This document shows positions 16,725 to 61,180 of a stretch of DNA of 64,000 nucleotides, piece after piece. The notes beneath the pieces were generated by a model that was not told the origin of the DNA, searched no databases, and saw nothing but the letters and a program-made list of their open reading frames with translations. Every line of letters starts with the position of its first letter. Position 1 is the first letter of the stretch. The position numbers and the translations under genes are program-made. The stretch comes from Dehalococcoidia bacterium (GTDB lineage Bacteria; Chloroflexota; Dehalococcoidia; GIF9; AB-539-J10): NCBI GenBank assembly GCA_049671165.1, contig JBATUN010000012.1, forward strand, positions 23,102 to 87,101, read 5' to 3'.

Positions 16725-16895
16725 CGCCTGGCTGAAGAGCTAATTATTAGAAAAGTTTGGTGCTTACATCCTACTGCGAGCTTTGAAGAACTTTGTGAAA
16801 TTCTGTAATAGTCTCCTGCGCACACGCCTGCAGAAGGTAGTGAATTTTTGCTTGCGTTATCCTATAATATCGGAAACAGACTGGGAGGCGTGGCG

Positions 16896-17234
16896 ATGCT
16901 ATATTGTCAACACTGCAAGAAGATAATAGACGAAGATTTGGTGTTCTGTCCTAAATGCGGGGAAGTCTTGATTGAGGAAGATATAGAATGGCAGGATTTT
17001 GAACTTCAGGGGGAAGTTGAGGAGGCGAAAGATAGGGCGAATATGTATATTATTTTGGCAATAGTTCTGGTAACGCTGGGGATGACGGGTAGTAGTGTAC
17101 TTTTTGTCTCATCGAGTCTGCTTGGGCTTTTTGGGATTGTGTTTGTTTGCCTGGGTATCGGATGTACTGCGGCGGCTTACCGACATGAATGCAAGGCCAG
17201 GAGTTTGAAGAATCAGCTCAGTCGGTGCGATTAG
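16896..17234 (+). CDS. Zinc-ribbon membrane protein (hypothetical)
   Basis: Start moved to the internal ATG with SD GGGAGG 6 nt upstream. CxxC...CxxC ribbon (CQHCKK...CPKCG) plus two TM helices. Confidence 0.5.
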   Translation: MLYCQHCKKIIDEDLVFCPKCGEVLIEEDIEWQDFELQGEVEEAKDRANMYIILAIVLVTLGMTGSSVLFVSSSLLGLFGIVFVCLGIGCTAAAYRHECKARSLKNQLSRCD

Positions 17235-17351
17235 TCTTGAGCTGCGTTTAGCGATACTGGTACTTGGATTTGCGGTCAGCTCAGTGACAACTTCCGCTAC
17301 GGCTTGTTCATTTAGGTTTATCTTGCGTCACCTAAGCTTGCCATTAGGACA

Positions 17352-17609
17352 TTAAGGTGAAGTGCGCCTCAGTTCAAATACCACCGGGTTTCCCGCGTCA
17401 GGACAGGCGACTGTGGTCTTGTTTCGGTCTTTCTCCCAGGGGAATGAACCACCGAATCGCAGGACTGCCGCACAAGGAAAGAGAGAGTAAAAAGCCCATG
17501 AACACAGGTTGGGCGGCGTCTGTTCTCCGATGACAAACTCATCACCAACCTTGTGTTGAGCCTCGCAGGTCCCTTTCTGGGATATCACCTTAGCTATTAC
17601 ATGAGACAT
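17352..17609 (-). CDS. Small conserved Cys-containing protein (TIGR04076-like)
   Basis: 85 aa. Pattern KVISQKGTCEAQHKVGDEFVI...CSWAF.SLFP...FGGSFPWE...VACPD.GNPVVFELRR recalled as the TIGR04076 family. Recall-based, not verified. Confidence 0.4.
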   Translation of the reverse strand: MSHVIAKVISQKGTCEAQHKVGDEFVIGEQTPPNLCSWAFYSLFPCAAVLRFGGSFPWEKDRNKTTVACPDAGNPVVFELRRTSP

Positions 17610-17736
17610 CTCAACCTCCTATTCGACTATTGATTGCATTAATGCCTTTTGCCTCGGTTTCGTGTTGGTCGACTACAGTTGTCTATATATTACATTGTGG
17701 CGCGGCTCAGTACAAGTGAGTGTTGGAGGGTAGAAT

Positions 17737-18948
17737 ATGCTCTCGCTTCTATGCCAATCCTCCTTTTTTTGGGCGTTGCGCGCACCCAAGATTAATGGAC
17801 ATTTGGAACAGCCCGGGGGATTCACGCTGAAGATGCAAATGTGGCAATGCTATAATCATAGAGTTTACGGTGATGGATGTTGCTCTAGCAGGAATCAAAA
17901 GGGAGGCAGGAGATTGAGCTGTAAAGCTGTTGTTACCTTTTATGTGCCTGGGGTAGTCCCCACCTATGATGAGTTACTAACCAAGCTAGGGGCAGAAGTT
18001 GAGAAGACTTTTTGTGCTACTGAGGAAGAACTCATCTCTGCCTGTTGCGAAGCTGATGCTGTCATAGCACTGGGAATAAGGATAACGCCCGGTTATATCT
18101 TTAGTACCAAAGTAATCGAGAATCTGAATAAATGCCGACTGATTGCCCTTACAGGCATAGGTTATGATAATGTGGATATAGCCGCCGCTACAGAAAAAGG
18201 TATCTGTGTTACCAATAATCCTTATTACTGCTTGGAGGAGGTCTCAGACCACGCTATGGCACTTATTCTCGCCTGTGCCAGGAAGTTTTATCAACTAGTT
18301 CCTGACATCAAAAGTGGCAAATGGAGTACGCAGGCAGATTATTTGAGCGCCTTGAAGCCATTACATCGGCTATCTGGACAGACCTTGGGGCTTATTGGCT
18401 TTGGCAATATAGCTCGTGCCCTTGTCCCGAAAGCCAAAGCTTTTGGCTTCAGAATCATTGCCTATGCGCCCCATGTGCCTCACATCCTGTTTGAGACGTT
18501 CAAGGTGGAATCTGTGGAGCTCGACCAGTTACTCGAAGAGTCGGACTTTGTGTCCATGCATACCGCTCTCACCCGAGAAACCAAGCATATGATGAGGCTT
18601 CCGCAGTTCAAGAAAATGAAGCGCACCGCCCATTTTTTCAACACAGCCCGAGGAGAACTCGTGGACGAAAGGGCTCTTTGTACTGCCCTTTCAGAGGGAT
18701 TGATTGCCGGTGCTGGCCTGGATGTATTGGAGTCAGAACCTCCCGGCCAGGACAATCCGTTGCTCAAGCTCAACAATGTTCTCATTACCGGTCATTTTGC
18801 TTACTATTCCGAGGAGTCGCGCGAAGAATTATTCAGGTGGCCCTGGGAGGAGGTAGCCCGGGTACTGCAAGGGGAGTGGCCTCAGGGCTTGATAAATGCA
18901 CAAGTCAAAGAGAGGTCTAGCGCTAAATGGGGTTTTCACCCCAAGTGA
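17737..18948 (+). CDS. D-isomer-specific 2-hydroxyacid dehydrogenase family protein (N-terminal ~70 aa of ORF probably not translated)
   Basis: NAD-binding GLIGFGNIARALVPKAKAFGFRIIAYAP, catalytic R/E/H region (HTALTRETKHMM, FNTARG). True start likely downstream of 17737. Confidence 0.8.
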   Translation: MLSLLCQSSFFWALRAPKINGHLEQPGGFTLKMQMWQCYNHRVYGDGCCSSRNQKGGRRLSCKAVVTFYVPGVVPTYDELLTKLGAEVEKTFCATEEELISACCEADAVIALGIRITPGYIFSTKVIENLNKCRLIALTGIGYDNVDIAAATEKGICVTNNPYYCLEEVSDHAMALILACARKFYQLVPDIKSGKWSTQADYLSALKPLHRLSGQTLGLIGFGNIARALVPKAKAFGFRIIAYAPHVPHILFETFKVESVELDQLLEESDFVSMHTALTRETKHMMRLPQFKKMKRTAHFFNTARGELVDERALCTALSEGLIAGAGLDVLESEPPGQDNPLLKLNNVLITGHFAYYSEESREELFRWPWEEVARVLQGEWPQGLINAQVKERSSAKWGFHPK

Positions 18949-27908: not shown

Positions 27909-28919
27909 ATGGAAGAAATACTGCCGAGTCTTTATAGAATCGAAGTTCCGCTCCCTGGAAGTCCTCTCAAAGCCACCAACTCTTATGTTGTAAAGGGGAC
28001 AGACCAATCTTTGATTATTGATACTGGATGGAATCGGGAAGACTGTATGGCGGCGCTTGTTTCCGGCTTGCGGGAATGTGGCGTGGACTTGAAGCAGGCC
28101 GATTTCTTCATCACCCACATGCATGCAGACCACTCGGGTTTAGTCTCAACTCTCGCTGAGCAAGGGGCAAAAATCTACTTTGGCCAGGCAGATGCGGAGA
28201 TTATTAGGTCTAGTACGCCTGGGCATTGGGAGAAGATGATTGATTTTGCTCGTAAGTGTGGCTTTCCTGGAGAAGAGCTGGAAAAGGCTATTGGAAGCCA
28301 CCCCGGTCGCAGATATAGCCCAAATACCTCCTTGAATTTTTGTATCTTAAGAGACGGTGATACGATAAGCATCGGGGATTACTTGTTTGGATGCATTGAA
28401 ACCCCGGGGCATACTCCGGGTCACATTTGTCTTTATGAGCACGGCAAGAAAATATTCATATGTGGTGACCATATCCTTGCTGATATAACTCCGAATATTA
28501 CCCTCTCCTTCGAGGATCGAAATCCATTGAAAGAATACCTGATGAGTTTGGACAAGGTTTATGATTTGGACGTTGAACTTGTCCTGCCCGGTCATAGGTC
28601 TATCTTCAGTAATCAAAAGGAGAGAATTCGAGAGCTGAGGCAGCATCATCAAGCCAGACTCACAGAGGTCATGTCCATTCTGGGCAAGGGTAAGCAAAAC
28701 GCATTCCAGGTCGCATCACAAATGACCTGGGACATAGGTTACAAGTCCTGGGATTTATTTCCTCCGGCACAGAAGTTATTTGCCTTTGGAGAGGCTCTGG
28801 CTCATTTGAAGTATCTTGAAGAGGAAGGGAAAGTGGGATTGGGTATGGAAAAGCAGGGAATTATGTTTTTCATCACACAGAATAAGAAGGAGGTACACAA
28901 ATGGCAGACGCTTACGTAG
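27909..28919 (+). CDS. MBL-fold metallo-hydrolase
   Basis: HMHADHSG (HxHxDH), plus downstream His and Asp ligands (TPGHTPGH, CGDH). Confidence 0.85.
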   Translation: MEEILPSLYRIEVPLPGSPLKATNSYVVKGTDQSLIIDTGWNREDCMAALVSGLRECGVDLKQADFFITHMHADHSGLVSTLAEQGAKIYFGQADAEIIRSSTPGHWEKMIDFARKCGFPGEELEKAIGSHPGRRYSPNTSLNFCILRDGDTISIGDYLFGCIETPGHTPGHICLYEHGKKIFICGDHILADITPNITLSFEDRNPLKEYLMSLDKVYDLDVELVLPGHRSIFSNQKERIRELRQHHQARLTEVMSILGKGKQNAFQVASQMTWDIGYKSWDLFPPAQKLFAFGEALAHLKYLEEEGKVGLGMEKQGIMFFITQNKKEVHKWQTLT

Positions 28920-29908
28920 TCTTAGCTGGAAAGCTTGGTTATGCTGAGTCAGAGAGACTTAGGAAGTTGCTCAAAAGGCTCATGGATAAGGAAGAAGCTG
29001 AGATAGTAGCTTCTCTTCCGTGTCCTGTGGCTGAGCTTGCCCAGAAGCTGGGCAAGAACGAAGAAAAGGTGAACGAAATGCTTAAGGAGCTTTTTGAGAA
29101 AGGGGTCATCTTCATGACTTCTAAGGGCTATCAATTTGCCAGGGACATATTTCAGCTCCATGATGCCACGGCCTGTGATGTGAGGTCGGACAAGGTCTGG
29201 GGGCGCGAGCTCCTCAATCTCTGGGAAGATTTCTGCCAGGCAGAATGGTACGCTGACTGGGCGAAGGTCGTTCAGACCTGGAAAATGCCTCTGTGGAGGG
29301 TGATTCCGGCCAGAAAAGCTATCTCCAAAGGAACGAGACTCCTTCCATCTGAGGACATGGAGACTATCCTTGATAAGGCTACCAGGTTTGCCCTAGCCAA
29401 CTGTTCTTGTCGGAGAATAGCCACAAGGTGTGATTTGCCGGTTGAGGTCTGTCTTCAAGTCAACCGAGCAGCGGAATACGCCATAACCAGAGGGACAGGT
29501 AAGGAACTGACTAAGAATGATGCGATGAAGGTTATGGATGTTGCGGAGGAGGCCGGTCTTATACATAGTGTGTTTAATGCTTCTGTAGTTACCAATGTGA
29601 TCTGCAATTGCTGCGGCGACTGCTGTATCTTCTATTATCCTCTTACCAAGTATGGTGTCCTCGAGAAGGGGGTGGCTAAGAGCAGATTCCAGGCAGAGGT
29701 GGACAAGGCAACCTGCAAGGGGTGTCAGACTTGCGTGGAAAGGTGCCCATTCGAAGCGGTCGATATGGTCAAAATCCCGGGGGAAAAGAAACTCAAGGCC
29801 CAGATAAGTTCAGAAAAGTGTTTTGGTTGTGGGGTCTGTGTCGTGGGATGTGAATCACAGGCCATCAAGTTCGTTGAAATCAGGCCTGCTGAGCACATCC
29901 CCGTTTAA
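28901..29908 (+). CDS. 4Fe-4S dicluster domain protein with Cys-rich CNCCGDCC motif (unknown function)
   Basis: Two ferredoxin-type motifs, CKGCQTCVERCP and CFGCGVCVVGCE. Overlaps the MBL gene by 19 nt (translational coupling). Confidence 0.6.
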   Translation: MADAYVVLAGKLGYAESERLRKLLKRLMDKEEAEIVASLPCPVAELAQKLGKNEEKVNEMLKELFEKGVIFMTSKGYQFARDIFQLHDATACDVRSDKVWGRELLNLWEDFCQAEWYADWAKVVQTWKMPLWRVIPARKAISKGTRLLPSEDMETILDKATRFALANCSCRRIATRCDLPVEVCLQVNRAAEYAITRGTGKELTKNDAMKVMDVAEEAGLIHSVFNASVVTNVICNCCGDCCIFYYPLTKYGVLEKGVAKSRFQAEVDKATCKGCQTCVERCPFEAVDMVKIPGEKKLKAQISSEKCFGCGVCVVGCESQAIKFVEIRPAEHIPV

Positions 29909-29971
29909 GGGTGGTAGCCCACAAAATCTGTTTGTGGGAAGAGCTTTATCAGAGCGATATGCGTTCTCTAA

Positions 29972-30877
29972 ATGGTAGGTGAGTGTCAAATGGCTGAAAC
30001 AAAAGTCGGCATTATTGGTGGAAGCGGGCTTTATAAAATGGAGGGGATGACAGGGATGGAGAAAGTGAGGATTAGCACGCCCTTTGGCGAGCCCAGCGAT
30101 GCTATCATCTTGGGCAATCTAGAAGGAGTGAAGGTTGCCTTTCTTCCCAGACATGGTGAAGGACATCGAATAAGCCCCAGTGAGCTACCGGCGAAAGCTA
30201 ATATCTACGCCTTGAAATCTCTGGGGGTGGAAAGGATTATCTCTGTGAGTGCTGTCGGCAGTCTCAAGGAAGAGATAGAACCTCTGGAGATAGTCATTCC
30301 CGACCAGCTGATTGATGCCACCAGAGGAAGAGCCAGCACTTTTTTCACCAATGGGATAGTAGGGCATGTATCTTTTGCTGAACCTTTCTGTCCCGTTTTG
30401 AGTCAACTCTCGTTTGAGTCAAGTGCCAAAGTTGGGGTTAAGGTACATAAAGGCGGTACTTATTTGGTCGTGGAAGGTCCACAGTTCTCCACCAAGGCTG
30501 AGTCACAGCTTTATTGCTCTTGGGGTGTTGATGTTGTTGGGATGACAGCTTTGCCTGAAGCTAAGTTAGCCAGAGAGGCAGAAATATGCTATGCCACGGT
30601 GGCCATTGTCACCGATTATGATTGCTGGCATCCGAGTTATGAATCGGTGACCACGGAGATGATCTTAACCAACCTGCGGAAGGGCATTGATACTGTGAAG
30701 AGAATCTTGAAGTTACTACTACCTTCCATACCACAAAAACGAGACTGTGCCTGTGCTGGCGTTCTTAAACATGCCATAGCCACTGAGGCAAAATACATAC
30801 CGGAGGAAAAAAAGAAAGAGCTAGGGTTGCTAATTGACAAGTATTTAGCTGGAGGTAAAGATGTCAGCCAGGTTTGA
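29972..30877 (+). CDS. mtnP: S-methyl-5'-thioadenosine phosphorylase / purine nucleoside phosphorylase
   Basis: VGIIGGSGLY N-terminus and PNP/MTAP family phosphate-binding residues. Start may be the internal ATG at 29990. Confidence 0.85.
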   Translation: MVGECQMAETKVGIIGGSGLYKMEGMTGMEKVRISTPFGEPSDAIILGNLEGVKVAFLPRHGEGHRISPSELPAKANIYALKSLGVERIISVSAVGSLKEEIEPLEIVIPDQLIDATRGRASTFFTNGIVGHVSFAEPFCPVLSQLSFESSAKVGVKVHKGGTYLVVEGPQFSTKAESQLYCSWGVDVVGMTALPEAKLAREAEICYATVAIVTDYDCWHPSYESVTTEMILTNLRKGIDTVKRILKLLLPSIPQKRDCACAGVLKHAIATEAKYIPEEKKKELGLLIDKYLAGGKDVSQV

Positions 30878-41620: not shown

Positions 41621-42589
41621 CTATCCAGACAATACCTTGACCAACCGCAACAAGTTGCTATCCAGTTCCTTACTTTTCTCCCAGGTTTCCCTCAAGGGAG
41701 TGAAAGCTATCTCTCCCTTCAGCTCCCCCGCCATGTAGCCTGACATACCCTTAACCAGGGCATCCACAGCCGCTGCTCCTAACTTACTCGCGAGAACTCT
41801 ATCCCTGGCTGTAGGTGAGCCACCTCTCTGGACATGCCCCAGCACGCAAATTCGGTACTCTAGCCTTAATCTCTCCCATACCTGTTGAGCGATGGATAAC
41901 GCACCGCCTGCATCATCTCCTTCAGCAACTATCACGATAGAGGATTTTTTGCCTCTCTTGAAGCTGCGCCTTATATCAAGGGAAAGCTGTTCTGGTTTTG
42001 TCTCTACTTCCGGAATCAAGATATTTTCGGCTCCGCCAGCAATTCCTACCTCCAGTGCAATGAATCCCCTACACTTTCCCATGACCTCGACGAAAAAGGG
42101 GCGTTGCAGCGACCCCGCAGTATCTCTGATCTTATCTATGGCATCCAAAGCTGTATTTATGGCAGTATCGAAGCCGATAGTGTAGTCCGTGCCATACACA
42201 TCGTTATCTATCGTGCCCGGAATGCCAATCACCTTCACGTTTCCTGCTTTGCCCAGGGCTGTGGCCCCCCGAAAGGTGCCATCCCCGCCTATAGTTATCA
42301 ACCCTTCGATGCCTTCGCGCCGGAGGACTTCATTTGCCTTCCTTATGCCTTCTTTAGTCTTCATTTCCTCACAGCGAGCTGTTTCCAGGATAGTGCCTCC
42401 ACGTTGGATAATGTTGGAGACCGACCTGCTGCCTAACTTTATGAAGTCCTCCTCCAATATACCGCAGTATCCTCGCCGAATTCCCACGATCTCCAACTTT
42501 CGGCTAACCCCGCACCGGACTATAGCCCTGAGGCAGGCATTCATTCCTGGAGCGTCACCGCCGCTGGTCAACACGCCAATCCTTTTCAT
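41621..42589 (-). CDS. pfkA: 6-phosphofructokinase
   Basis: N-terminus MKRIGVLTSGGDAPGMNA and PFK family GGDG motif. Confidence 0.93.
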   Translation of the reverse strand: MKRIGVLTSGGDAPGMNACLRAIVRCGVSRKLEIVGIRRGYCGILEEDFIKLGSRSVSNIIQRGGTILETARCEEMKTKEGIRKANEVLRREGIEGLITIGGDGTFRGATALGKAGNVKVIGIPGTIDNDVYGTDYTIGFDTAINTALDAIDKIRDTAGSLQRPFFVEVMGKCRGFIALEVGIAGGAENILIPEVETKPEQLSLDIRRSFKRGKKSSIVIVAEGDDAGGALSIAQQVWERLRLEYRICVLGHVQRGGSPTARDRVLASKLGAAAVDALVKGMSGYMAGELKGEIAFTPLRETWEKSKELDSNLLRLVKVLSG

Positions 42590-52098: not shown

Positions 52099-52172
52099 GT
52101 GAGCCGTGCGAGACTCGAACTCGCGACACCCTGATTAAAAGTCAGGTGCTCTACCAGCTGAGCTAACGGCCC
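52099..52172 (-). tRNA. tRNA-Lys (anticodon UUU)
   Basis: Minus-strand sequence GGGCCGTTAGCTCAGCTGGTAGAGCACCTGACTTTTAATCAGG...TTCGAGTCTCGCACGGCTCA folds as a cloverleaf with anticodon loop CUUUUAA. Confidence 0.85.
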
Positions 52173-52472: not shown

Positions 52473-52511
52473 CTTCTAATCTGTGCCTTTATCGCTTATG
52501 GTTATCGCCAC

Positions 52512-52554
52512 AGCGGGTGATGGGATTCGAACCCACGACGTCTTACTTGGGAAG
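52512..52554 (-). repeat. Displaced 3' portion of a tRNA-Gly(CCC) gene (anticodon loop to acceptor 3' end; att-site remnant)
   Basis: Minus strand reads TTCCCAAGTAAGACGTCGTGGGTTCGAATCCCATCACCCGC. Acceptor CACCCGC complements the orphan 5' half GCGGGTG at 59813-59852, 7.3 kb away. Confidence 0.7.
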
Positions 52555-52627
52555 CTAGTAAGTTACCAAATGGCTATTGACATGGTTACGTACTAGCATT
52601 ATCATCATTCATAGATAAGTTTAGGGA

Positions 52628-53818
52628 TTGTTCTGTGGGTTGTCAAGATTATGTATGGAGGTGAATGTGAAGACTTTAGAAGTGATGGAGAAGGTTTTGA
52701 AAGGTAAGAGGTTGAAGGCTAATACTCAGAGGCATTATCGTGAAGCGTTGGGTTCGTTAGCCCAGTACTCGGAAGATTGGCCTGTTAGTGGTGTGATAAT
52801 CAATGAGTGGTTAGCGTCTTTGGAAGGGTATGCTGATTCGACGATAAAGATGTGGTTTGACTGTGTTAATGCTGCGGGTAAATATGTATTGAAGGCATAT
52901 AAGATAGCTAATCCGTGTGCTGAGGCTGAGAGGCCGAAGGTAAGTAAGAAGAGGCGTAGGTATTTTACTGTTGACGAAATGGTCGCGATTATTAAGGCTT
53001 GTGTGAACGATTTTGAATTGGCGCTGGTGATGACGTTGATAGACTCTGCCTGTCGTATAGGTGAGCTGGTGGACTTAAGAGGTGGTGATGTTGGTGATGG
53101 TTTCATTAATGTGGCTGGTAAGACCGGGCAGAGGCGTTATAGGCTTGACGTGAGACTGTGCGAGAAGTTGAGGGATATGGCTGGTGGTGAGGATAAGCCT
53201 GTATTTAAGAACAGGTTTGGTAGGTTTTACCAGGATGGTGATGGTCTAGGGCATAGAGTTCGATATATAGTGGAACGTGCCGGTATTAAGGGTAAGAAGA
53301 TCGGTGTACATACGATAAGGCACAGTAGTGCTTCTTTGGTGGCAAGTGTGGGTATGAAGCCATTAGTGGTGAAGGCTCTGCTTCAGCATGACGATGTGAA
53401 TACGAGTATGGTGTATATCCATGATGTTGAAGATTTGATAATTGGTACTGATGAGTATAGCCCTCTCAAGCTAGTGGAGAAGCGGTATAAAGAAGCTCAT
53501 AGTGGTGAGGTTGAAGGTGAGCAGTTGCGGTTGAGTGATGGTCAGTTTGGTGATGAGTCTGTGGCATTAGTGCCTGTTAGTGGTGAGGTGGTAGATGCTG
53601 GTGGAGTAGATGTGCTGGTTAGTGATATGTTCCCTGAAATACCAGATGGTATTGTGGTCAGGACGTTGTTGAAGTACGAGGAGTTGATGCTAGTACGTAA
53701 GATCTTCATGTGGTACGCTAGCTATAATCCCGGTAATAGTGATGCGGCTAGGGTACGTGAGCTTATGAAGCGTATGCTTCGTAAGGGTGGCAGTGAATTT
53801 TATGCGAAGAGACAATAA
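52628..53818 (+). CDS. int: Tyrosine-type site-specific recombinase (phage integrase family)
   Basis: N-terminal SAM-like core-binding region. C-terminal catalytic residues in HTIRHSSASL...SMVYIH (HxxR...Y). Probable start 52655-52667 (SD GGAGG at 52657-61). Confidence 0.85.
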   Translation: MFCGLSRLCMEVNVKTLEVMEKVLKGKRLKANTQRHYREALGSLAQYSEDWPVSGVIINEWLASLEGYADSTIKMWFDCVNAAGKYVLKAYKIANPCAEAERPKVSKKRRRYFTVDEMVAIIKACVNDFELALVMTLIDSACRIGELVDLRGGDVGDGFINVAGKTGQRRYRLDVRLCEKLRDMAGGEDKPVFKNRFGRFYQDGDGLGHRVRYIVERAGIKGKKIGVHTIRHSSASLVASVGMKPLVVKALLQHDDVNTSMVYIHDVEDLIIGTDEYSPLKLVEKRYKEAHSGEVEGEQLRLSDGQFGDESVALVPVSGEVVDAGGVDVLVSDMFPEIPDGIVVRTLLKYEELMLVRKIFMWYASYNPGNSDAARVRELMKRMLRKGGSEFYAKRQ

Positions 53819-53935
53819 AAGGAGATGGAGGATGTAGTCGTGTGGATAATGTGGCTTTGTGATACAATTGCATAGGTTCAAATTTGAGCAATGTGGAGAC
53901 GTAGCTCAAGTAGTTGAGGTTATAAGGGAGTTGAA

Positions 53936-54295
53936 ATGAAAAAGGCAGGAACAATCGTTGGTGTTATAGCGGTTATCATCATTATTGTTGTAGTTCTAAC
54001 CTGTGATGGGATTGTCCCTAGGGATTCTACATTCGACATAAAGATATCTGGAACAGGGGGGCTTGAGTTTTCAGGCAGCTATATGGTAACGACATCAAAT
54101 GGGCAAGTAGTATCTAAATCAGTAGATGGGATGATTCCAGAGCAATATTCAGTGTCTGGAACACTAGTTTCAGTCATGTTCCAGAAACAAACCGAAGAAG
54201 GTACTCTTAGAGTTGAAATAGTTAAGGGAAATGAGGTTATTGCGAGTGAAGAGACAACTGCGGAGTATGGTATTGTTTCTGTAGCCACAGATTAA
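53936..54295 (+). CDS. Small membrane-anchored protein (hypothetical, island cargo)
   Basis: N-terminal TM IVGVIAVIIIIVVVL, then a beta-rich soluble part. SD-like GGGAG upstream. Confidence 0.4.
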   Translation: MKKAGTIVGVIAVIIIIVVVLTCDGIVPRDSTFDIKISGTGGLEFSGSYMVTTSNGQVVSKSVDGMIPEQYSVSGTLVSVMFQKQTEEGTLRVEIVKGNEVIASEETTAEYGIVSVATD

Positions 54296-54579
54296 AGAGA
54301 GGGTGATACTCGTACTAGGTCTTAGCCTTCATGGATGGGGTTTGGGTGGTCGGAGATTCAAAGACTCGAATGTCAGATAGAATTATGATGAAACTACGAT
54401 AGAGCGTATAAGGGGGATTAGACCTCGTTCTTACCTAGACCGTAGTTATTGACTTGTATTTCTGCAATGAGGACGCTAGGGCGTGCAGCGTTCTTCTATC
54501 GATAGTTCAGTTTTTATGTCTATCCTATATGTTATACTAAGATAAGCGTGAATCGTAAATTCAATTTTGGAGGTGCAGT

Positions 54580-54747
54580 ATGCCAGTACCAGCTGAAGTA
54601 CAAGCGGCTATAGTAACAGTGTCGGGGGAGTGGGCGAGATATCTTGTGACTGTGAGGGAAGAAGACCGGGAAGAGGTTCTCATAAAACTGTTGAAGTATT
54701 ACAAGGATGCTTACGAAGACCTTAAGAAGTTACAAAGTAAGTTCTAA
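54580..54747 (+). CDS. Hypothetical 55-aa protein (island cargo; not in the ORF track, <60 aa)
   Basis: ATG preceded by GGAGGTG. Sequence MPVPAEVQAAIVTVSGEWARYLVTVREEDREEVLIKLLKYYKDAYEDLKKLQSKF. Confidence 0.3.
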   Translation: MPVPAEVQAAIVTVSGEWARYLVTVREEDREEVLIKLLKYYKDAYEDLKKLQSKF

Positions 54748-55051
54748 CTGTAACGTTAAACAGGTGTAATAGTAGGTGTAATTGTTTGTTGGGAACGCTG
54801 TGCGTTCGCACTAGTAGGTAAGATACCCTGTTCTTAGTAGAAGGAGGGCGTTTATGCGCCGAGTGGTTCGTGGGGACGGAAGTGAACGTGGGACAAAAAG
54901 GAGGTGAAGATAGTAGGTGGTGATTGGGTCAAGGATTTAAGACTGAACGAAGTATCAGCGTGGGTTGACTACGTAGGATAATAGTTATAATGAGAATAAG
55001 GGGGTGTCGCTCCCTTATCAGAAGTTAAACAGAAAGGGAGGTAAGATATTA

Positions 55052-55456
55052 ATGGCAGGAAACGAGACAAGGGAACCAACACTAGGTGAAATTATAGAAG
55101 AGATTAAGAAGTCCAAGGATGAGATTATGAAAGAGATTGAAGGTTCTAGAATATCAAGGGAACCAACCCTAGGTGAGATTATGGAAGAGATTAAGGGGTC
55201 CAAAGATGAAGCTGTAAAAAGTAGCGAGGGTTCTAGAATAGCAATGTGGCTCACGCCTGCTGCATTTGGCGGTGCAATAGCATTATTTGGGGTTACACGT
55301 TTAGCAGGAGTGTCACTTAGCGATTGGGTCGTTTGGTGGCCAGATGCGCTGGTCGCAGCTGTGGGGCTTGGATTTATGATTTGGAGTGGGAGTATGGCAG
55401 CTAGGGCACAAGAACGATTTAGAGGCAGATGGAATGAGCCACCACCCAGATTTTAA
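55052..55456 (+). CDS. Two-TM membrane protein with duplicated N-terminal REPTLGEI(I/M)EEIK.SKDE repeat (hypothetical)
   Basis: Start at MAGNETREP after SD GGGAGG. Two hydrophobic helices, AAFGGAIALFGV and ALVAAVGLGFMIWSG. Confidence 0.45.
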   Translation: MAGNETREPTLGEIIEEIKKSKDEIMKEIEGSRISREPTLGEIMEEIKGSKDEAVKSSEGSRIAMWLTPAAFGGAIALFGVTRLAGVSLSDWVVWWPDALVAAVGLGFMIWSGSMAARAQERFRGRWNEPPPRF

Positions 55457-55511
55457 TGCAAGTTATAGACTGTTGACTGATGGCACCTAGATTGGTGCGG
55501 ATTATAACAGT

Positions 55512-55551
55512 GGGGTAAAGGGTGGCAATAGCTGATTTACCCCGTTCTTGT
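55512..55551 (+). terminator. Candidate intrinsic terminator hairpin
   Basis: GGGGTAAAgggtggcaatagctgaTTTACCCC (8-bp stem) followed by a T-rich gttcttgtc. Confidence 0.3.
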
Positions 55552-55697
55552 CTAGAACGTGGTCTGCCTGCTGAGTTTAAGAGCACACATGGGTTGGCTA
55601 GTAAGATGGCGAATAAGAATATGCAAGGTGTTGACGATTGTGAGGCAAGGACTGTAAACTTGGCATGAGTGTGTGAAGTAACGGTAGACAGGAGACT

Positions 55698-56486
55698 ATG
55701 GGAACTATAGATATAAGACTTGAGGAGACAACGGTGGAGCAAGAGGGGAAGAAGTATGCTCTTCGTGTATATAGCGAGGCTGCGTTAGAGGGTTTCAATC
55801 CAAAAGTGTTGGGATTGGGGAATATTGGTCAGAGGTCAAGACGAACTGATGTTATTGCTGCAGTATTTGACCTAGCGGGTTTCACAGGTTTTTGTAGTCA
55901 AGTCGACCCTCATTTGATCCTGCCAAGGTTCCTTAAGGAATTTTTAGATTGGCTTTTTGGAGATATCAAATCTGAGTTTGAAGAAAGAAGATTTGGGGAA
56001 AAGGTTCTGTTGTATTCGGATTTGCCGTTTTTTGCGAAATTTACGGGGGACGGCGTAGTGTTCCTATGGGATACAGCGAATATGGACATGCGTAAGGTGT
56101 GCAATGTTCTGGTGATCGCGGAGCATATATGGGATAACTATAGTAAAGCTTTTGCGCCGAAGGCGAAAAGGTATTTATCGCAGGTACCCAAAGCTCTAAA
56201 GTGCGGATTGGCATGCGGTCTGGTGTGTTCAGTAGGTAAGGGGGAAGATTATGTGGGGGCATGTATTAATATTGCGTCAAGATTGCAGAAGCTAAGTAAT
56301 ATGCGGTTTTGTTGTTCGCAAAGAGGAATAAACATTGAAGAAGGAATGCTGAAGAAGACTCAAGAAGCATATGTGACTAAACGTGTGTCAATAAGAGGAA
56401 TTGGAAGTGACGAGCGAGTCATAGTTGGAAAATCGGATTTTGAGAAGCTGTCAAAAAGGGATAAGGCAATCTTTAAGGACGTATAA
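55698..56486 (+). CDS. Standalone class III nucleotidyl (adenylyl/guanylyl-type) cyclase domain protein
   Basis: Three hallmark motifs present: VIAAVFDLAGFTGF (FxDxxGFT, metal Asp), KFTGDGVVFLWD (K..GDG, second Asp), GLACGLVCSVGKGEDYVGACINIASRLQ (G.H.G.V..G......Y...G..VN.ASR). 262 aa with no other domain. Confidence 0.7.
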   Translation: MGTIDIRLEETTVEQEGKKYALRVYSEAALEGFNPKVLGLGNIGQRSRRTDVIAAVFDLAGFTGFCSQVDPHLILPRFLKEFLDWLFGDIKSEFEERRFGEKVLLYSDLPFFAKFTGDGVVFLWDTANMDMRKVCNVLVIAEHIWDNYSKAFAPKAKRYLSQVPKALKCGLACGLVCSVGKGEDYVGACINIASRLQKLSNMRFCCSQRGINIEEGMLKKTQEAYVTKRVSIRGIGSDERVIVGKSDFEKLSKRDKAIFKDV

Positions 56487-56565
56487 GTGGAAACTGGGGG
56501 GGAAAGGTTCTTGTCAATTAAGCCCTATGATAGCGTTAGTTTCGGATTGTTACCAAGAACGAGTG

Positions 56566-56594
56566 TTGACTTGTTGATTGTGTTCGTGTAGAAT
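56566..56594 (+). promoter_or_regulatory. Sigma-70-like promoter (TTGACT-17-TAGAAT)
   Basis: Near-consensus -35 and -10 with 17-nt spacing, upstream of the 56769 gene and Rep. Confidence 0.5.
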
Positions 56595-56723
56595 ATTCGT
56601 GGTTCTTTAAAAGTTGAATCATGGAGTGACTATAGGTAATCGGTGAAAAACATACCGACAGCCTGCCTAGCTTAGCTGGGCCGGTGTCCGTTAGCGTCGG
56701 AGAAATTAGGTCGGGATTCCGTG

Positions 56724-56751
56724 AGGATCGCTATATAGCGGTCCTCTTTTT
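56724..56751 (+). terminator. Perfect 9-bp palindrome + T6 (attenuator/terminator-like) in the leader of the 56769 gene
   Basis: GGATCGCTATATAGCGGTCC followed by TCTTTTTTG, 18 nt before the SD AAGGAGG. Confidence 0.45.
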
Positions 56752-56768
56752 TGTTTAAGGAGGTGAAT

Positions 56769-57101
56769 ATGATGGACAGAGAAGAATTTTTCGTTGATGG
56801 TGTTCCTGAGAGCGGTTATCTTTGGTGTCGTGAGTGTGAGCGTGCTTATAAATATGGGTCATATAAGGAGGAGGTTTATAGATTGCCGGAGCAGTTTCCG
56901 ATTGAGTTGCGTACGGGGTTTTTTTATTTAGGTATTACTCCGTCTGATTTGAAGGATATAGATGGGAGTATACGTCAGATGTGTCCTTACCCTGGGTGTG
57001 ATGGTGACACTGTTTTTGATGCGTTTGAGTGGGAATGGCTGAGGTCATATCATCCTGAATATCCTGATGTTCCTGAGGATGGTGTTGTGTATCGTTTGTG
57101 A
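56769..57101 (+). CDS. Small Cys-rich (zinc-binding?) protein (hypothetical)
   Basis: Start MMDREEF after SD AAGGAGGTG. Motifs CRECERAY and CPYPGCDGD. Confidence 0.4.
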   Translation: MMDREEFFVDGVPESGYLWCRECERAYKYGSYKEEVYRLPEQFPIELRTGFFYLGITPSDLKDIDGSIRQMCPYPGCDGDTVFDAFEWEWLRSYHPEYPDVPEDGVVYRL

Positions 57102-57339
57102 TGGGTGAGGGGAAAAGATTTAAGGTGTTGGTGAGGTTGGGGCATCTTTAGATGGTTGGTGTTGTTGAGGGGACTTGTTGGCGTTCTGGAGTGAATTTGA
57201 GGGGATTGTTGCAAGGCTCAGGCAGAAGGCGGTGGCGGTACGCCACGCCTTGCCTATTTGTTGTTTTGTGGTGTCAGATGGTTGGGCTGGTCCTTTGTAG
57301 GAGTTGTGCGGGTAATAGTGGGAGGTCTTATCTCACTTG

Positions 57340-57465
57340 ACTATAACTACAAACTATCTCTATATAATGACTATACAGTAGATATATAGGAGTAATACTT
57401 AAGGAATAATCTCTATATACTAATAGGTGAAATGTTACTTGATTCGTGGGTTGCGGGTGTCATAG
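57340..57465 (+). promoter_or_regulatory. AT-rich iteron-containing region upstream of Rep (candidate replication origin/promoter)
   Basis: Direct repeats TCTCTATATA (2 copies) and the palindromic-ish CTATACAGTAGATATATAG, in a sharply AT-rich stretch between G/T-rich flanks. Confidence 0.35.
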
Positions 57466-58284
57466 ATGAGGAAACGTAGGGCTGAGTGGCGTGAGTTAAC
57501 GAGTGCTGAGAAGCGAAAGTATGCTATGGCTGTTAGGCGTTTGAATTTGGGGATTTGGGGTTATGCGATAAGTAGTCTAAGGGCTGTTCATCTGACGACG
57601 AGGGAAGGTAATGATAATACGCCGTGGGTGTTCGCCAGGGATTTAAGGAAGCTGGTCAACAGTTTTAGACGTGATGGGTATGATTTAGAGTACAACGGTG
57701 CTTTAGAGTTTTCACCGGAGAAGCATCTATTGCATTGGCATGGGATATTTAGGATAAAGGGCGGGTTCTTCTTGAGGCCTATGATTTCAGGGGAAGATAA
57801 GGCAGCGGTGAGGCGTGAGTTAGGTGACCGCTGGAACAAGTACCATGGTGCTTTTGCGGTGCAGATTACCGAAGTTGCGAGTAAAAGGGACCTGGAGAAG
57901 TATATATTGAAGCACATACTGAAAGAGTACATAGGGGTAGATGAGGATATGCGGAATAAGTTTCTATTCTCGAGAAAGTGGATGCGTGAAGGGTGGAAGA
58001 AGGTTGAGGACCTGGCGAAGTTGTGGGTGTTAGGCGGTCCTGAGTCCGATGGTGGTTTGAGTGCGATGTATATGACGAAAGAGGGATGGGATAAGGTCAA
58101 TGAGATAGTGCAGGCTTGGGCTCAGAAAGAGACAGGTATGTTTCGTGGCGCAGGTGTTAATGGTGGCCTGAGTGGTTATCTGTATATGGAATTAGGTCGT
58201 ATTCGTGAGGCGTTTGGGAGTGGGTTTGAAATTAGGCGTGATGGTGAGGTTTGTCGAAGTAAGTTTGAGTACGTGGATTTTTAG
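57466..58284 (+). CDS. HUH-endonuclease-like rolling-circle replication initiator (Rep) candidate
   Basis: Motif I-like AVHLTT, HUH motif LLHWHGIF, Tyr motif KYILKH (Y..K). Basic N-terminus. Followed by an SSB-like gene and preceded by an AT-rich iteron region. Confidence 0.45.
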   Translation: MRKRRAEWRELTSAEKRKYAMAVRRLNLGIWGYAISSLRAVHLTTREGNDNTPWVFARDLRKLVNSFRRDGYDLEYNGALEFSPEKHLLHWHGIFRIKGGFFLRPMISGEDKAAVRRELGDRWNKYHGAFAVQITEVASKRDLEKYILKHILKEYIGVDEDMRNKFLFSRKWMREGWKKVEDLAKLWVLGGPESDGGLSAMYMTKEGWDKVNEIVQAWAQKETGMFRGAGVNGGLSGYLYMELGRIREAFGSGFEIRRDGEVCRSKFEYVDF

Positions 58285-58287
58285 GAG

Positions 58288-58668
58288 GTGGATATGTTTT
58301 TGACAAGGATTGCTAGTACTGTATCGGGTCGTTCGACTAAGGGAGCCCGGCGAAGCTATGCTCCCGATGGTAAGGTGATTGGTGAGTTCTTTTTGGCTTG
58401 TGGTAATGGAAGTGTGAAGTATCCGACAATGTATGTGAAAGTTTGCGTATGGGAAGATTTAGCGGAGAAGGCGCTGGCTGTTATAGACCGGAAAGGTTTG
58501 AATGTTGAAGCTAGTGGTTTTCTGTTGATTAAGCAGTATGAAGGTGAGTATGGGAAGTCGGTTTTAATTGAATTGAAGGATGTTCGTGAGGTTAAGTTGT
58601 TTAATAGAGATGGTGAGTTAGAGCAAGTGCTTATTGATGGTGAAACCAAGAGAAAGGAGGTGAACTGA
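58288..58668 (+). CDS. OB-fold single-stranded-DNA-binding (SSB)-like protein
   Basis: Pattern ...GEFFLACGNG...YVKVCVWEDLAEKA...GLNVEASGFLLIKQYEGEYGKSV resembles the SSB OB core (W..V.W..LAE...KG..V.V.G.L). 126 aa. Confidence 0.4.
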   Translation: MDMFLTRIASTVSGRSTKGARRSYAPDGKVIGEFFLACGNGSVKYPTMYVKVCVWEDLAEKALAVIDRKGLNVEASGFLLIKQYEGEYGKSVLIELKDVREVKLFNRDGELEQVLIDGETKRKEVN

Positions 58669-58949
58669 TGGAAGAAGCGGTTCCGTTTAGTATTGATTTG
58701 AGTGATGAGGATATAGATGTGGTTGTGAAGGCGTTAGGTAAGCGCTTTAAGTTTGGCAAAGATGGTCCTGTTAAGACTGTAGCTTTGGCTTTAGTAGTGG
58801 CTGAGTTAGAGGTTGCCATGTATAAGACGTTGATGGATAAAGCTGGATGTGTTAATTTAGATGATGTTGTGAATAAGGTGAGGTTTTGGAGTTTGGAGCA
58901 AGGTTCGTCTTTAAGTGAGCGATGGCTGCGTCGTCATGGGATTACGTGA
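58668..58949 (+). CDS. Hypothetical protein (island cargo), start overlaps the SSB-like stop
   Basis: 93-aa ORF, ATGA overlap with the upstream gene. Confidence 0.35.
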   Translation: MEEAVPFSIDLSDEDIDVVVKALGKRFKFGKDGPVKTVALALVVAELEVAMYKTLMDKAGCVNLDDVVNKVRFWSLEQGSSLSERWLRRHGIT

Positions 58950-58967
58950 GTATGATGGGTGTTGCTA

Positions 58968-59042
58968 TGGAGCGGGAGACGGGACTCGAACCCGCGACTC
59001 TCTGCTTGGGAAGCAGATGTTCTACTACTGAACTACTCCCGC
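58968..59042 (-). tRNA. tRNA-Gly (anticodon CCC), copy A, CCA-encoded, atypical D-loop (no GG)
   Basis: Minus strand GCGGGAGTAGTTCAGTAGTAGAACATCTGCTTCCCAAGCAGAGAGTCGCGGGTTCGAGTCCCGTCTCCCGCTCCA. D-loop AGTAGTA lacks the conserved G18G19, so it may be impaired. Confidence 0.7.
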
Positions 59043-59295
59043 GTGAGTGCTGTTATGGCTATTGATGGTGAGGTACTGCGGTGAGTATCCTCCCCAATGG
59101 CCATTCAGGTATTGCTTGGATTGCAGGAGGTGGCTAGATAGATTGATACCACTACAGGTAATGGAGTTTGCTGAGTGAACTGGATGGAGAATTATGTCTG
59201 GGGTGCATGATAGGCTTGTAAGAGGCTTAAAAGTGCCTCTGAGGGCATTGCGGGGCAAAGTGACAGGCGGTGGCGATCGCTTGCGACAAGCCACT

Positions 59296-59523
59296 GCAAG
59301 AGAAGAGAAGAAAAGAGAAAGAAGAACAGAAGGAGAAAGAGAAGAAGCAAGAAAAGAAGCAAGAAAAGAAGCAAGAGAAGGAGAGAGAGAAGAAGCGAGA
59401 GAGGAAGCAAGAGAAGAAGCAAGGGAAGAAGGAAGAGAAGAAGATAAGAGAAGAGAAGATAAGAGAAGGGGAAGAAGAGAAGAGAAAGAAGGGAAGAAGC
59501 GAGAGAAAAAGAAAGAGAAGAAG
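59296..59523 (+). repeat. ~230-nt homopurine (A/G, few C, 2 T) low-complexity tract with GAAGCAAGA(A/G)AA-type periodicity
   Basis: Direct reading shows only two T in 228 nt on the + strand. Generates spurious K/E/R-rich ORFs in several frames. Confidence 0.8.
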
Positions 59524-59672
59524 TAACAAGAAGAGAAGAGGGGATACTGGCAATTATTTTTGTATCCCTGTCAAAGAAAGAATTTGAAGGGCAGAAGTAG
59601 GTGCGGAAGTGGTGGAATGGGGGCCGTGGAATGGAGAGTTGGGTGAGGGTTATGATGGCGGGAAGTGAAGTG

Positions 59673-59744
59673 AGCGGGAGACGGGACTCGAACCCGCGAC
59701 CCTCTGCTTGGGAAGCAGATGCTCTACCACTGAGCTACTCCCGC
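59673..59744 (-). tRNA. tRNA-Gly (anticodon CCC), copy B (canonical D-loop, no encoded CCA)
   Basis: Minus strand GCGGGAGTAGCTCAGTGGTAGAGCATCTGCTTCCCAAGCAGAGGGTCGCGGGTTCGAGTCCCGTCTCCCGCT. Confidence 0.85.
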
Positions 59745-59812
59745 GTGGGTGCTGTTATGGCTATTGGTAGTGAGGTAATGTGTTCGATATATCCCTCGAA
59801 TAGCCATTCAGG

Positions 59813-59852
59813 TATTGCTTGGGAAGCAAGCACTCTACCGCTGAGTTACACC
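59813..59852 (-). repeat. Orphan 5' half of the original tRNA-Gly(CCC) (acceptor GCGGGTG through anticodon loop)
   Basis: Minus strand GCGGGTGTAACTCAGCGGTAGAGTGCTTGCTTCCCAAG, then continues into the conserved ~90-nt unit (CAATACCTGAATGGCTATT...) rather than a T-arm. Confidence 0.7.
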
Positions 59853-59869
59853 CGCAATTAGTTATATTA

Positions 59870-61180
59870 TCAGGCGGGAGGACCGATAATGTCAAGGACA
59901 GATTTCTCTAGTGGTCTCATTGTCAACAATTTCCTGGCAATTTTAGGATATTTGGCAATGAAGAGTAATTCATCTTCCACGAGTGGCTTTTGCGCTTCCA
60001 CATTGGCATACCTTACTAGTTCCAGAATCTCTTCAGCTTGTCGGTCATCTTCAAACGACACCTCCATCTGCCCCATTATGTGACTGAAGCCTGATATGCC
60101 GATATATTGCCCTGAGCATATCTCTCTGCCAGTCTCTACAAGCTCTGGATCACCTCTACCCAGTTCGTTGAAGCTATATAGCTCGTAGTTCTCCGGGTCT
60201 TTCAATACTCCATCAGCGTGAATACCAGAACCGTGGGCGAAGGCGTTAGCACCGACGCCAGGCTGGTTTATAGGAATGGGGACCCTAAAAGCATAGCTGG
60301 CGAATTTACTTACTTTCCAAGCCTTTGTCAGGTCTATGGGCTTTCCTATTCGATATTCTTCAGCGAATCCCTTGGATTTGGTAATAGCTAGAGCCGTGGC
60401 TATTAGGTCAGCGTTACCGGCTCTTTCTCCAATACCATTGAGGGTGGTGTTTATGTAAGCATCCTGTCCACCGTCTATAGCCCCTTTAGCCCCGGCAAGG
60501 GAATTAGCCGCAGCCATTCCCAGGTCGCCATGGCAGTGGAGCTCGATAGGTATTCCAATGTTTTCTGCTAGTATCTTGGTGCTCTCGTAAATAGTAAATG
60601 CATTGTCATAGCCCAGGGTATCACAATACCTGAGTCGGTCAGCCCCGTGTTCCTTGGCTGCCAAGCCGAATCTAACTAAGAAATCTATTTCTGTTCTGGA
60701 GGCATCTTCGGCATTTACGCCTATGCTTTCAGCTCCATGGGCACGGGCCGCTTCTACAGCATCGACCATCATGACTACGATATCCTCTCGATCCTTTGTG
60801 CCCCCGAATTTGCCTTGAAGCATTTGGTCCGATGTGGAAATGGAGATGTTAAGGTGCTTAATACCAGGGACAAGCTTGAAGGTTTTTTCCACATCAGCAA
60901 CAACTGCCCTTATCCACCCCCCCAACCGGATGGGCTGCAAGACGCCCATCTCAGCCAGTTCCAGGTTTGCCTGAAGGTAAAGCGACTCGTGTCTGGTCGT
61001 CGGGAAACCAAATTCGGACTGGAAGACACCCATGTCATTGAGGTACATATTTATCATGGTTTTTTCCAGCTTAGACAAACCGAGGTTGGCGGTTTGAACG
61101 CCATCGCGATTGGTAACATCTATGAAATAAATCTTGGCCATCGTTGCCTCCCGGATGGGTGAATTGGATAAAGATAGCAT
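59870..61180 (-). CDS. 2-isopropylmalate synthase / homocitrate synthase / citramalate synthase family protein (short form, no LeuA regulatory domain)
   Basis: N-terminus MAKIYFIDVTNRDGVQT and DRE-TIM barrel HxH metal site (LHCHGDLGMA). Likely start 61142. Confidence 0.8.
   Translation of the reverse strand: MLSLSNSPIREATMAKIYFIDVTNRDGVQTANLGLSKLEKTMINMYLNDMGVFQSEFGFPTTRHESLYLQANLELAEMGVLQPIRLGGWIRAVVADVEKTFKLVPGIKHLNISISTSDQMLQGKFGGTKDREDIVVMMVDAVEAARAHGAESIGVNAEDASRTEIDFLVRFGLAAKEHGADRLRYCDTLGYDNAFTIYESTKILAENIGIPIELHCHGDLGMAAANSLAGAKGAIDGGQDAYINTTLNGIGERAGNADLIATALAITKSKGFAEEYRIGKPIDLTKAWKVSKFASYAFRVPIPINQPGVGANAFAHGSGIHADGVLKDPENYELYSFNELGRGDPELVETGREICSGQYIGISGFSHIMGQMEVSFEDDRQAEEILELVRYANVEAQKPLVEDELLFIAKYPKIARKLLTMRPLEKSVLDIIGPPA

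Follow-up and report, generated by a model that had tools for sequence, protein, structure and literature searches.

How can a bacterial chromosome carry a transfer RNA gene that is cut in two, and what kind of DNA lies between the halves? The stretch that raises this question, referred to below as the window, comprises 64,000 nucleotides from a Dehalococcoidia bacterium (assembly GCA_049671165.1, contig JBATUN010000012.1, positions 23,102 to 87,101 of the forward strand) and contains a tRNA-Gly(CCC) gene interrupted by a block of genes whose sense strand is very poor in cytosine. The explanation favoured here, at a probability of roughly 0.7, is that the insert represents a small mobile element of the integrative, rolling-circle type, from an undescribed family of Dehalococcoidia, which disrupts tRNA genes and replaces them. 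Positions are numbered from the first letter of the window, and the features are collected in Table 1.

Direct reading of the sequence places the split within the anticodon loop of the host tRNA-Gly(CCC) gene, the two parts of which are separated by an insert of 7,262 bp (52556-59817). A 10-bp core is common to both halves and covers the anticodon loop. For comparison across the family, about 65 loci were fetched (labelled L001 etc.). That DNA was inserted into the host gene is proven because the related genome of locus L068 retains the empty site. The gene to the right of the insert (59870-61180), which is of the HMGL-type homocitrate/citramalate synthase-like kind and has many close homologs, is 95% identical to its counterpart in L068; there, an intact tRNA-Gly(CCC) lies 14 nt past this gene and is followed by a 91-amino-acid gene and tRNA-Lys, as at the left junction of the window. 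The intact tRNA is identical to window positions 52512-52555 joined to 59828-59855. Furthermore, the left (3'-half) junction of the window recurs in L001, L002, L026, L028, L029, L033 and L007, and the right (attR, 5'-half) junction in at least ten loci. The tRNA is rebuilt at neither junction: ARAGORN calls none there, and the attR junction scores 21 bits against an Rfam threshold of 29. ARAGORN does call three tRNA genes near the region, all on the minus strand: one is tRNA-Lys(TTT), at 52099-52172, and the other two, both tRNA-Gly(CCC), lie within the insert. The initial annotation, made from the window sequence alone, had recognized the split and its position in the anticodon loop, and both are borne out by the sequence and by the intact tRNA in L068, the kind of comparison that it had proposed; the coordinates of the halves are corrected in Table 1. 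Its size estimate of ∼6.4 kb has to be replaced by 7.26 kb, and, while the host gene is indeed disrupted, the two intact tRNA-Gly(CCC) genes carried by the insert had been missed, so the function is not lost.

The insert is made up of a full element copy of 6.56 kb (52556-59119) and a remainder of ∼0.7 kb (59120-59817), the relic of a second copy. The right end, consisting of the tRNA and an ∼80-nt spacer ending in GCCATTCAGGTATTGCTTGG, is present twice as a direct repeat spaced 702 bp. In blastn comparisons, relic positions 59208-59275 match the region preceding the replication initiator (Rep) gene in L014, L018 and L026, positions 59208-59521 match L016 upstream of its Rep gene, and positions 59540-59671 match the pre-tRNA region of L014, L018 and L026; Rep and the single-stranded DNA-binding protein (SSB) are absent from the relic. 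As the right end occurs twice and the relic matches other members without holding Rep or SSB, the insert therefore consists of a full element beside an older copy that has suffered internal deletion. L014 has a similar duplication, which includes a second SSB. The tRNA of the full copy has lost the conserved GG of the D-loop (AGTAGTA) and has four differences from the family consensus, three of which are C>T changes on the + strand, and the tRNA of the relic shows one mismatch to the tRNA that replaces the host gene in L069. One of these two redundant copies may be decaying. The relic also holds a low-complexity, AG-rich tract that repeats with a period of 12 nt (59294-59535), which yields spurious K/E/R-rich open reading frames (ORFs) and is also seen upstream of Rep in L015 and L016.

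Since the insert carries two tRNA-Gly(CCC) genes of its own, its integration is of the disrupt-and-replace kind, as in tRNA-dependent lysogeny. The latter was described in 2024 for tailed temperate actinobacteriophages and is defined by a core of ∼10 bp, a tRNA that is not reconstructed and a tRNA of matching isotype on the element (Guerrero-Bustamante & Hatfull, PMC10865867). The likeness includes the tyrosine integrase, the attB site within a tRNA gene, the ∼10-bp core, the lack of rebuilding and the matching tRNA (PMC10865867). However, the carrier here is a Rep/SSB element of 3.6-9 kb without virion genes in the Chloroflexota, whereas there it is a tailed temperate phage, and the tRNA targets among which the present family has switched number at least two and probably three, the element tRNA matching the target in each case. 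The complete triplet of junctions (host 3' half, core and left end; element tRNA-Gly(CCC); spacer, core and host 5' half) was found in at least ten independent loci, which differ in their flanks and among which the host tRNA occurs in two sequence variants. In L032 (780-6170; 66% Rep identity) a host tRNA-Ala(GGC) is split and the element has its own tRNA-Ala(GGC) at 2065-2139, located just after int and in the orientation opposite to the host gene. In L064 a tRNA-Thr(GGT) stands beside an incomplete host tRNA-Thr(GGT), upstream of an apparent tuf gene, and the same strategy is probably used at this gene. Integration sites outside tRNA genes were found for L023, L027, L030 and L009.

In L069 (11287-13260) the element copy has permanently taken the place of the host tRNA gene. 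Precisely where the host tRNA had been, 14 nt from the HMGL-like gene, there is a tRNA-Gly(CCC) of the element type; next to it are a C-depleted relic of 1.9 kb, in which only three paralogous membrane-protein genes, as found in the slot after SSB, are left, and, at ∼13205-13245, a decayed 3' half of the host tRNA. Retention of this tRNA while the rest decayed suggests, indirectly, that integrants may need it for survival. Codon demand as the reason for the element tRNA was considered and rejected, the use of GGG codons being barely above that of the host (22 vs 18 per 1000); since codon demand fails, the element tRNA is best explained, as far as the sequences tell, as compensation for the split host gene.

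The protein-coding genes of the full copy point to rolling-circle replication. Fold comparison gave an HUH endonuclease fold for Rep, closest to viral and plasmid initiators and not to relaxases; it was the only approach that succeeded, as a Rep profile matched no PDB sequence. Twenty diverse members show no variation in the motifs LLHWHG and YIxKH, and 17 of 20 family members match PF23343, the inovirus/plectrovirus gpII type (best E value 1e-10). SSB lies directly downstream of Rep in 48 loci, and 13 of 15 members of its family match PF00436 (best E value 1e-12). The conserved 280-bp block directly upstream of rep is the likeliest candidate for the origin: its hairpin (DNA fold z of -3.05) is present in 18 loci, and in about 20 loci its two ATCTCTATATA repeats keep constant positions relative to the start of rep, at -110 and -57. 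An integrated rolling-circle or ssDNA-type replicon, as distinct from a dsDNA prophage, had already been proposed in the initial annotation, based on a tyrosine integrase inside the left boundary, a candidate HUH Rep, an SSB-like gene, small membrane proteins and a class III cyclase. All of these components were recovered by motifs, fold, profiles or hydropathy; the recommended profile searches gave a PF00589 match for the integrase and family-level matches for Rep and SSB, and the HUH fold was found. The adjacent SSB, the origin-like region, the absence of virion genes and the empty site agree with the proposal. In addition, tblastn of Rep against deposited phages and plasmids found no relative, in line with the earlier remark that no described element family could be matched.

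The element belongs to a rare, undescribed family of Dehalococcoidia, represented by about 60 loci. Among 1.84 billion representatives, only 105 clusters (50% identity) were found with Rep at E <= 1e-3; the Rep family comprises 78 clusters at 90% identity, and the hosts named are Dehalococcoidia and Dehalococcoidales metagenome-assembled genomes. A scan of IMG/VR viral contigs with the Rep alignment returned no relatives, and nothing specific was found in the literature on a described family or on extreme C depletion in such elements. Members range from ∼3.6 to 9-12 kb, with all genes on one strand, and share a backbone of integrase (Int), variable cargo, small ORFs (including a homolog of the Cys-rich protein at 56751-57101), Rep, SSB and one to three further small ORFs that vary, with a tRNA in many cases; the minimal members of ∼3.6 kb hold Int, small ORFs, Rep and SSB alone. 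The cargo includes a DpnII-type restriction-modification (R-M) pair, DndB and a Ser/Thr kinase with a TPR protein in L004, HATPase_c_3, Dcm and Vsr in L034, and a NACHT NTPase in L058. Pfam and PHROG searches of the window detected no virion, capsid, lysis or repressor genes, no PHROG structural matches and no pI/Zot-like ATPase, and the family backbone has no conserved ATPase. In the window and the relatives examined, there were likewise no morphogenesis ATPase, capsid, lysis or conjugation genes, no FtsK-like Tra/translocase, no relaxase and oriT with a coupling protein, and no type IV secretion system (T4SS). Two distant Rep relatives (30-37% identity), L064:1511-10277 and L061, are 8-9 kb in length and equally one-stranded and skewed; their genes include those for a protein of 707-734 amino acids, for one with collagen repeats and for a small AAA-like protein that gives a weak 'head morphogenesis' PHROG match, and these two may represent complete viruses from the same Rep lineage. 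In L042 (135-3349), three consecutive tyrosine-recombinase genes of host-like composition (recombinase-in-trio) lie directly upstream of a Rep-SSB module.

What is genuinely unusual about the element is that one of its strands has lost nearly all of its cytosine. GC skew is between +0.27 and +0.57 in each 500-bp segment from 52500 to 59999 and about zero outside, and it amounts to +0.43 over the whole insert, compared with a mean of +0.03 (standard deviation 0.065, maximum +0.15) for host segments of 7 kb. The sizeable ORFs are all on the + strand. At fourfold degenerate sites the composition is A 0.21, C 0.07, G 0.30 and T 0.41 in the element and A 0.18, C 0.32, G 0.23 and T 0.27 in the host, the shift being mainly from C to T with some gain of G. 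These figures substantiate the earlier description of one-strand ORFs with a C-poor, G+T-rich coding strand. Intergenic C is 0.13 and amino-acid usage is shifted accordingly; the G+T content is 0.60 in the element, 0.55 in M13 and 0.61 in phage B5. All family members have a sense-strand C content of 0.11-0.16 irrespective of their G content, and the bias ends at the element borders. DNA that is repeatedly single-stranded is expected to deaminate, with C changing to T, as in the heavy strand of vertebrate mitochondrial DNA, and the loss of C from the sense strand fits long-term single-strand deamination as a possible cause. Elsewhere in the window, mild coding-strand GC skew of up to +0.18 to +0.26, far weaker than in the element, is seen at 14001-18200, 28601-30300 and 41621-42589.

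The favoured reading can be set out as a sequence of events. The tyrosine integrase recombined the 10-bp core with the host tRNA-Gly(CCC) in its anticodon loop, splitting the host gene without rebuilding it, and the element supplies a complete tRNA-Gly(CCC) from just inside its right end. An earlier copy had integrated at the same site, leaving the 0.7-kb relic and its tRNA. Once excised, the circle would be copied by the rolling-circle mode, the HUH Rep nicking the origin-like region upstream of rep and SSB coating the displaced + (sense) strand. Repeated exposure of this strand as ssDNA would lead to loss of C and gain of T and G at coding, fourfold and intergenic positions. The slot between int and the replication module holds exchangeable, often defence-type cargo, filled in the present case by the cyclase and membrane proteins.

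Several observations weigh against this reading. The window Rep itself scores 24.7 bits against PF23343, just under the cutoff of 27.8, and the window SSB 23 bits against PF00436, below the cutoff of 26; no Rep nick site was identified in the origin-like region; and no attP-type junction, terminal overlap or redundant contig occurs in the ∼65 loci, a result that is uninformative rather than negative. The skew of +0.43 is far above the reference values for M13 (+0.01), B5 (+0.18) and the rolling-circle plasmid pC194 (-0.14), and ssDNA exposure alone may be insufficient to produce it. Furthermore, three chromosomal cyclase homologs without Int or Rep (L067, L073 and L075) lie in patches of 0.9-2.5 kb with a skew of +0.33 to +0.43 and a fourfold C of 0.04-0.13; these patches may be relics of the kind seen in L069, or some further cause may contribute to the bias. 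Selection also has to be considered, by which C would be avoided as an escape from Rho termination, from C-directed nuclease or deaminase defence, or from restriction or modification at C-containing targets. Rho prefers C-rich RNA, and a selective origin would suit a skew exceeding that of the reference ssDNA replicons, the enrichment of G along with T, the C-depleted cyclase homologs outside complete elements, and the Dcm/Vsr and R-M cargo, which shows engagement with cytosine-directed systems. However, intergenic and fourfold sites are as depleted as coding positions, and the derived changes in the minus-strand tRNA gene are C>T on the + strand. The recently acquired cargo of L004 is, moreover, less skewed (+0.21 to +0.31) than its core (+0.47 to +0.49), which is consistent with gradual mutational amelioration. 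Selection as the origin of the depletion is considered rather unlikely.

The nature of the element has to be weighed separately. No recognisable virion or conjugation genes are present, so it is either plasmid-like or a satellite of another agent. As a satellite of a filamentous or budding virus, it would be a rolling-circle element whose + strand or dsDNA is packaged by a Dehalococcoidia helper virus, much as RS1 and TLC are packaged by CTXphi and fs2. Filamentous phages and their satellites (Pf4-like inoviruses that encode an integrase; CTXphi/RS1/TLC; pDolos) also integrate and have a gpII-type HUH Rep (PF23343) followed by an ssDNA-binding protein, as in gII-gV, with all genes on one strand and a G+T-rich sense strand, as in M13 and B5; the small versions likewise have no virion genes of their own. 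Filamentous-like viruses (IME1) occur in Dehalococcoidia (bioRxiv 10.64898/2026.09.15.751708), and the rolling-circle plasmid pDolos is documented as an inovirus satellite (bioRxiv 10.1101/2023.11.28.569023). However, the element differs from these phages in having no pI/Zot ATPase or conserved coat genes, an SSB-type protein rather than gpV/RstB, its own integrase with tRNA disruption instead of XerCD/dif, and a far stronger GC skew. No helper has been identified, no packaging signal is known, IMG/VR viral contigs hold no relative, and IME1 is proposed to package dsDNA (bioRxiv 10.64898/2026.09.15.751708); a packaged satellite is accordingly judged unlikely. An autonomous inovirus-like prophage, with the small membrane proteins as coat proteins, would draw on the same Rep family, the Rep-SSB order, the unidirectional genes, the small transmembrane (TM) proteins and the larger gene sets of L064 and L061, with their collagen-repeat and AAA-like proteins (weak 'head morphogenesis' PHROG match). 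It is the least probable of the alternatives, as neither the window nor the close family has a pI/Zot-like ATPase, the TM proteins are not conserved among members, the minimal members hold just Int, small ORFs, Rep and SSB, and there are no PHROG structural matches. Hardly more probable is an integrative mobilizable element (IME) in which the HUH Rep acts as relaxase and ssDNA is transferred through the conjugation or secretion apparatus of another element. Its architecture of Int, Rep and cargo fits, and relaxases of the rolling-circle-initiator type (MobT) are known in IMEs and in integrative and conjugative elements (PMC6499999), yet no coupling protein, FtsK-like Tra or T4SS gene occurs in any locus, Rep is nearest to viral and plasmid initiators rather than relaxases, and the dedicated SSB and origin-like region suggest replication.

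Table 1. Features of the insert and its borders, in window coordinates
Feature	Position	Strand	Evidence or remarks
Host tRNA-Gly(CCC) 3' half, displaced, including attL core CTTGGGAAGC (52546-52555)	52512-52555	-	Sequence reading; equals 3' part of intact L068 tRNA
Sigma-70-like promoter TTGACA-17-TATCAT, just inside attL, upstream of int	52577-52605	+	Promoter scan, 11/12 match
Tyrosine integrase, Xer-like	52628-53818	+	PF00589 7e-13; phrog_1 4e-30; NCBIfam XerA-like 1e-23, below cutoff
Variable cargo, 119 amino acids (ORF119), N-terminal TM anchor at residues 5-23	53936-54295	+	Hydropathy; no family match; not conserved among loci
Variable cargo, 55-amino-acid ORF	54580-54747	+	ORF list; no significant matches
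Variable cargo, 150 amino acids (ORF150), tandem 29-amino-acid repeat and two C-terminal TM helices	55004-55456	+	No family match
Cargo, standalone class III nucleotidyl cyclase-fold protein, 262 amino acids	55698-56486	+	Profile, AlphaFold2, Foldseek
Candidate small RNA or transcribed leader	56566-56756	+	Promoter TTGACT-17-TAGAAT 56566-56594; ∼150-nt transcript 56600-56752; intrinsic terminator 56723-56746 and T-run
Small Cys-rich (CxxC...CxxxC) conserved protein, likely start ATG 56769	56751-57101	+	ORF cluster 5; 12 loci, beside Rep or SSB; no family match
Origin-like non-coding region, conserved, directly upstream of rep	57190-57465	+	Alignment A6, 78% mean identity over ∼280 bp; GC-rich hairpin 57226-57251; TCACTTGACTATAAC 57333-57347; ATCTCTATATA repeats 57356-57366 and 57409-57419; GGTGAAATGTTACTTG 57426-57441
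HUH-superfamily replication initiator (Rep)	57466-58284	+	Motif I hLTT, II LLHWHG, III YIxKH
SSB-type OB-fold ssDNA-binding protein, without acidic C-terminal tip	58288-58668	+	PF00436
93-amino-acid ORF, variable post-SSB slot	58668-58949	+	Cluster c17, shared with L014 and L032; no family match
Element tRNA-Gly(CCC) copy 1, of the full element	58968-59042	-	ARAGORN; Rfam 70.4 bits; diverged
Right-end spacer of full copy, ending in truncated core (…GGTATTGCTTGG); junction with relic	59043-59119	+	Direct repeats D2 and D10 with 59745-59822; alignment A2
Relic, internally deleted, older second copy: pre-Rep-like segment, AG-rich stretch, pre-tRNA segment	59120-59671	+	blastn
Element tRNA-Gly(CCC) copy 2, of the relic, canonical family consensus	59672-59744	-	ARAGORN; Rfam 74.2 bits
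Right-end spacer (P arm) with AATAGCCATT, inverted counterpart of left-end AATGGCTATT	59745-59817	+	
attR core (59818-59827) and host tRNA-Gly(CCC) 5' half	59818-59855	-	Sequence reading; equals 5' part of intact L068 tRNA
Predicted attP junction of excised circle (putative)			…GGTATTGCTTGGGAAGCTAGTAAGTTACC…

The remaining features of the full copy concern the integrase, the cargo and a possible RNA. The integrase, which is the first gene in 20 related loci, probably starts at ∼52655-52667 and has a C-terminal extension of ∼125 amino acids beyond the catalytic Tyr (the Pfam match stops at residue 266 of 396), for which no family match was found. The promoter upstream of it lies within the left-end motif (A/G)AATG(G/A)CTATTGACA, which is kept at the left end of about ten loci irrespective of the integration site. 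In ORF150, an 87-nt tandem duplication (55068-55241; 79% identity) encodes a repeated 29-amino-acid acidic/basic segment before the two TM helices. The RNA unit downstream of the cyclase gene (minimum free energy -55.3, z of -3.5) is kept in nine distinct relatives, with a variable hairpin insertion in some and a few compensatory pairs; covariation is weak, with nine sequences only, and neither this unit nor the upstream block matches an Rfam family. It is a candidate leader or small RNA that might control the replication module.

The cyclase was recognized by a profile and a structure model, which were needed since the single sequence matched nothing in Pfam, PADLOC, NCBIfam or PDB. A 30-sequence profile matched Spirulina CyaC (PDB 1wc0; E value 4e-4) with the metal and substrate (catalytic) motifs aligned, and the top 50 Foldseek hits of the AlphaFold2 model (pLDDT 85.5) are all class III enzymes (adenylyl, guanylyl or uridylyl cyclases; E value 1.6e-8). 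The protein family comprises at least 180 clusters and, among the Rep loci, occurs in the window only. Homologs in L067 (2512-3300), L073 (7229-8773) and L075 (4326-5114) are the chromosomal ones mentioned above and lie next to GmrSD, DUF4145 or hisI; that in L065 adjoins a TIR protein and has normal composition. The class III fold in the cargo, and the TIR neighbour in L065, recall Pycsar and cyclase-based defence. However, Pycsar has an adjacent effector that binds cyclic nucleotide monophosphates and bears a TM or TIR module, and no such effector lies next to the cyclase in the window; ORF150 has TM helices and no detectable nucleotide-binding domain. Membership of the cyclase and ORF150 in Pycsar was rejected, as PADLOC matches neither the cyclase nor its neighbours and the neighbours of the homologs vary.

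Among integrating elements, actinomycete integrative and conjugative elements (AICEs, such as pSAM2) and the Firmicutes IMEs with rolling-circle Rep proteins share the combination of tyrosine integrase and HUH initiator, the small size and the integration in tRNA genes, and excise to replicate. However, they rebuild the 3' end of the tRNA and carry transfer genes (FtsK-like Tra, or oriT with relaxase function), neither of which is seen here, and their Rep families are unrelated in sequence to the window Rep. IME1 of Dehalococcoides shares the host class, the Xer-like integrase as first gene, the tRNA-gene integration and small TM proteins (bioRxiv 10.64898/2026.09.15.751708). It differs in its length of 21-28 kb and in having a primase-helicase, a pI-like ATPase and an HTH repressor, and the paper mentions no HUH Rep, SSB or skew (bioRxiv 10.64898/2026.09.15.751708); as none of these three genes occurs in the window and the element measures 6.6 kb, assignment to IME1 was rejected. 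The element thus combines two known kinds, integrative rolling-circle elements and tRNA-dependent integration, in a family that is itself undescribed. A bolder interpretation, advanced only tentatively and regarded as rather unlikely, is that this is a new mobile-element lineage of Dehalococcoidia with an ssDNA stage (satellites or minimal viruses), the C depletion of which reflects heavy strand-specific deamination, host- or self-inflicted, or evasion of a cytosine-directed host process, and which drives permanent tRNA replacement.

Integration by disruption with an element-borne tRNA, known from tailed actinobacteriophages, is thereby extended to a distant phylum and to a very small carrier, a Rep/SSB element. 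With C nearly absent from one strand (7% at fourfold sites), strand-specific mutation or selection shows itself in an unusually clean natural signal, by which such elements and their relics could be recognized, and the integrase, att site and tRNA module are a possible basis for integration vectors in Dehalococcoidia. This group is relevant to bioremediation and hard to study genetically, and in it minimal integrative replicons ferry defence-type cargo. The family has been retargeted to different tRNAs by swapping in the matching tRNA gene, and in one host lineage the native tRNA gene has been permanently replaced by that of the element.

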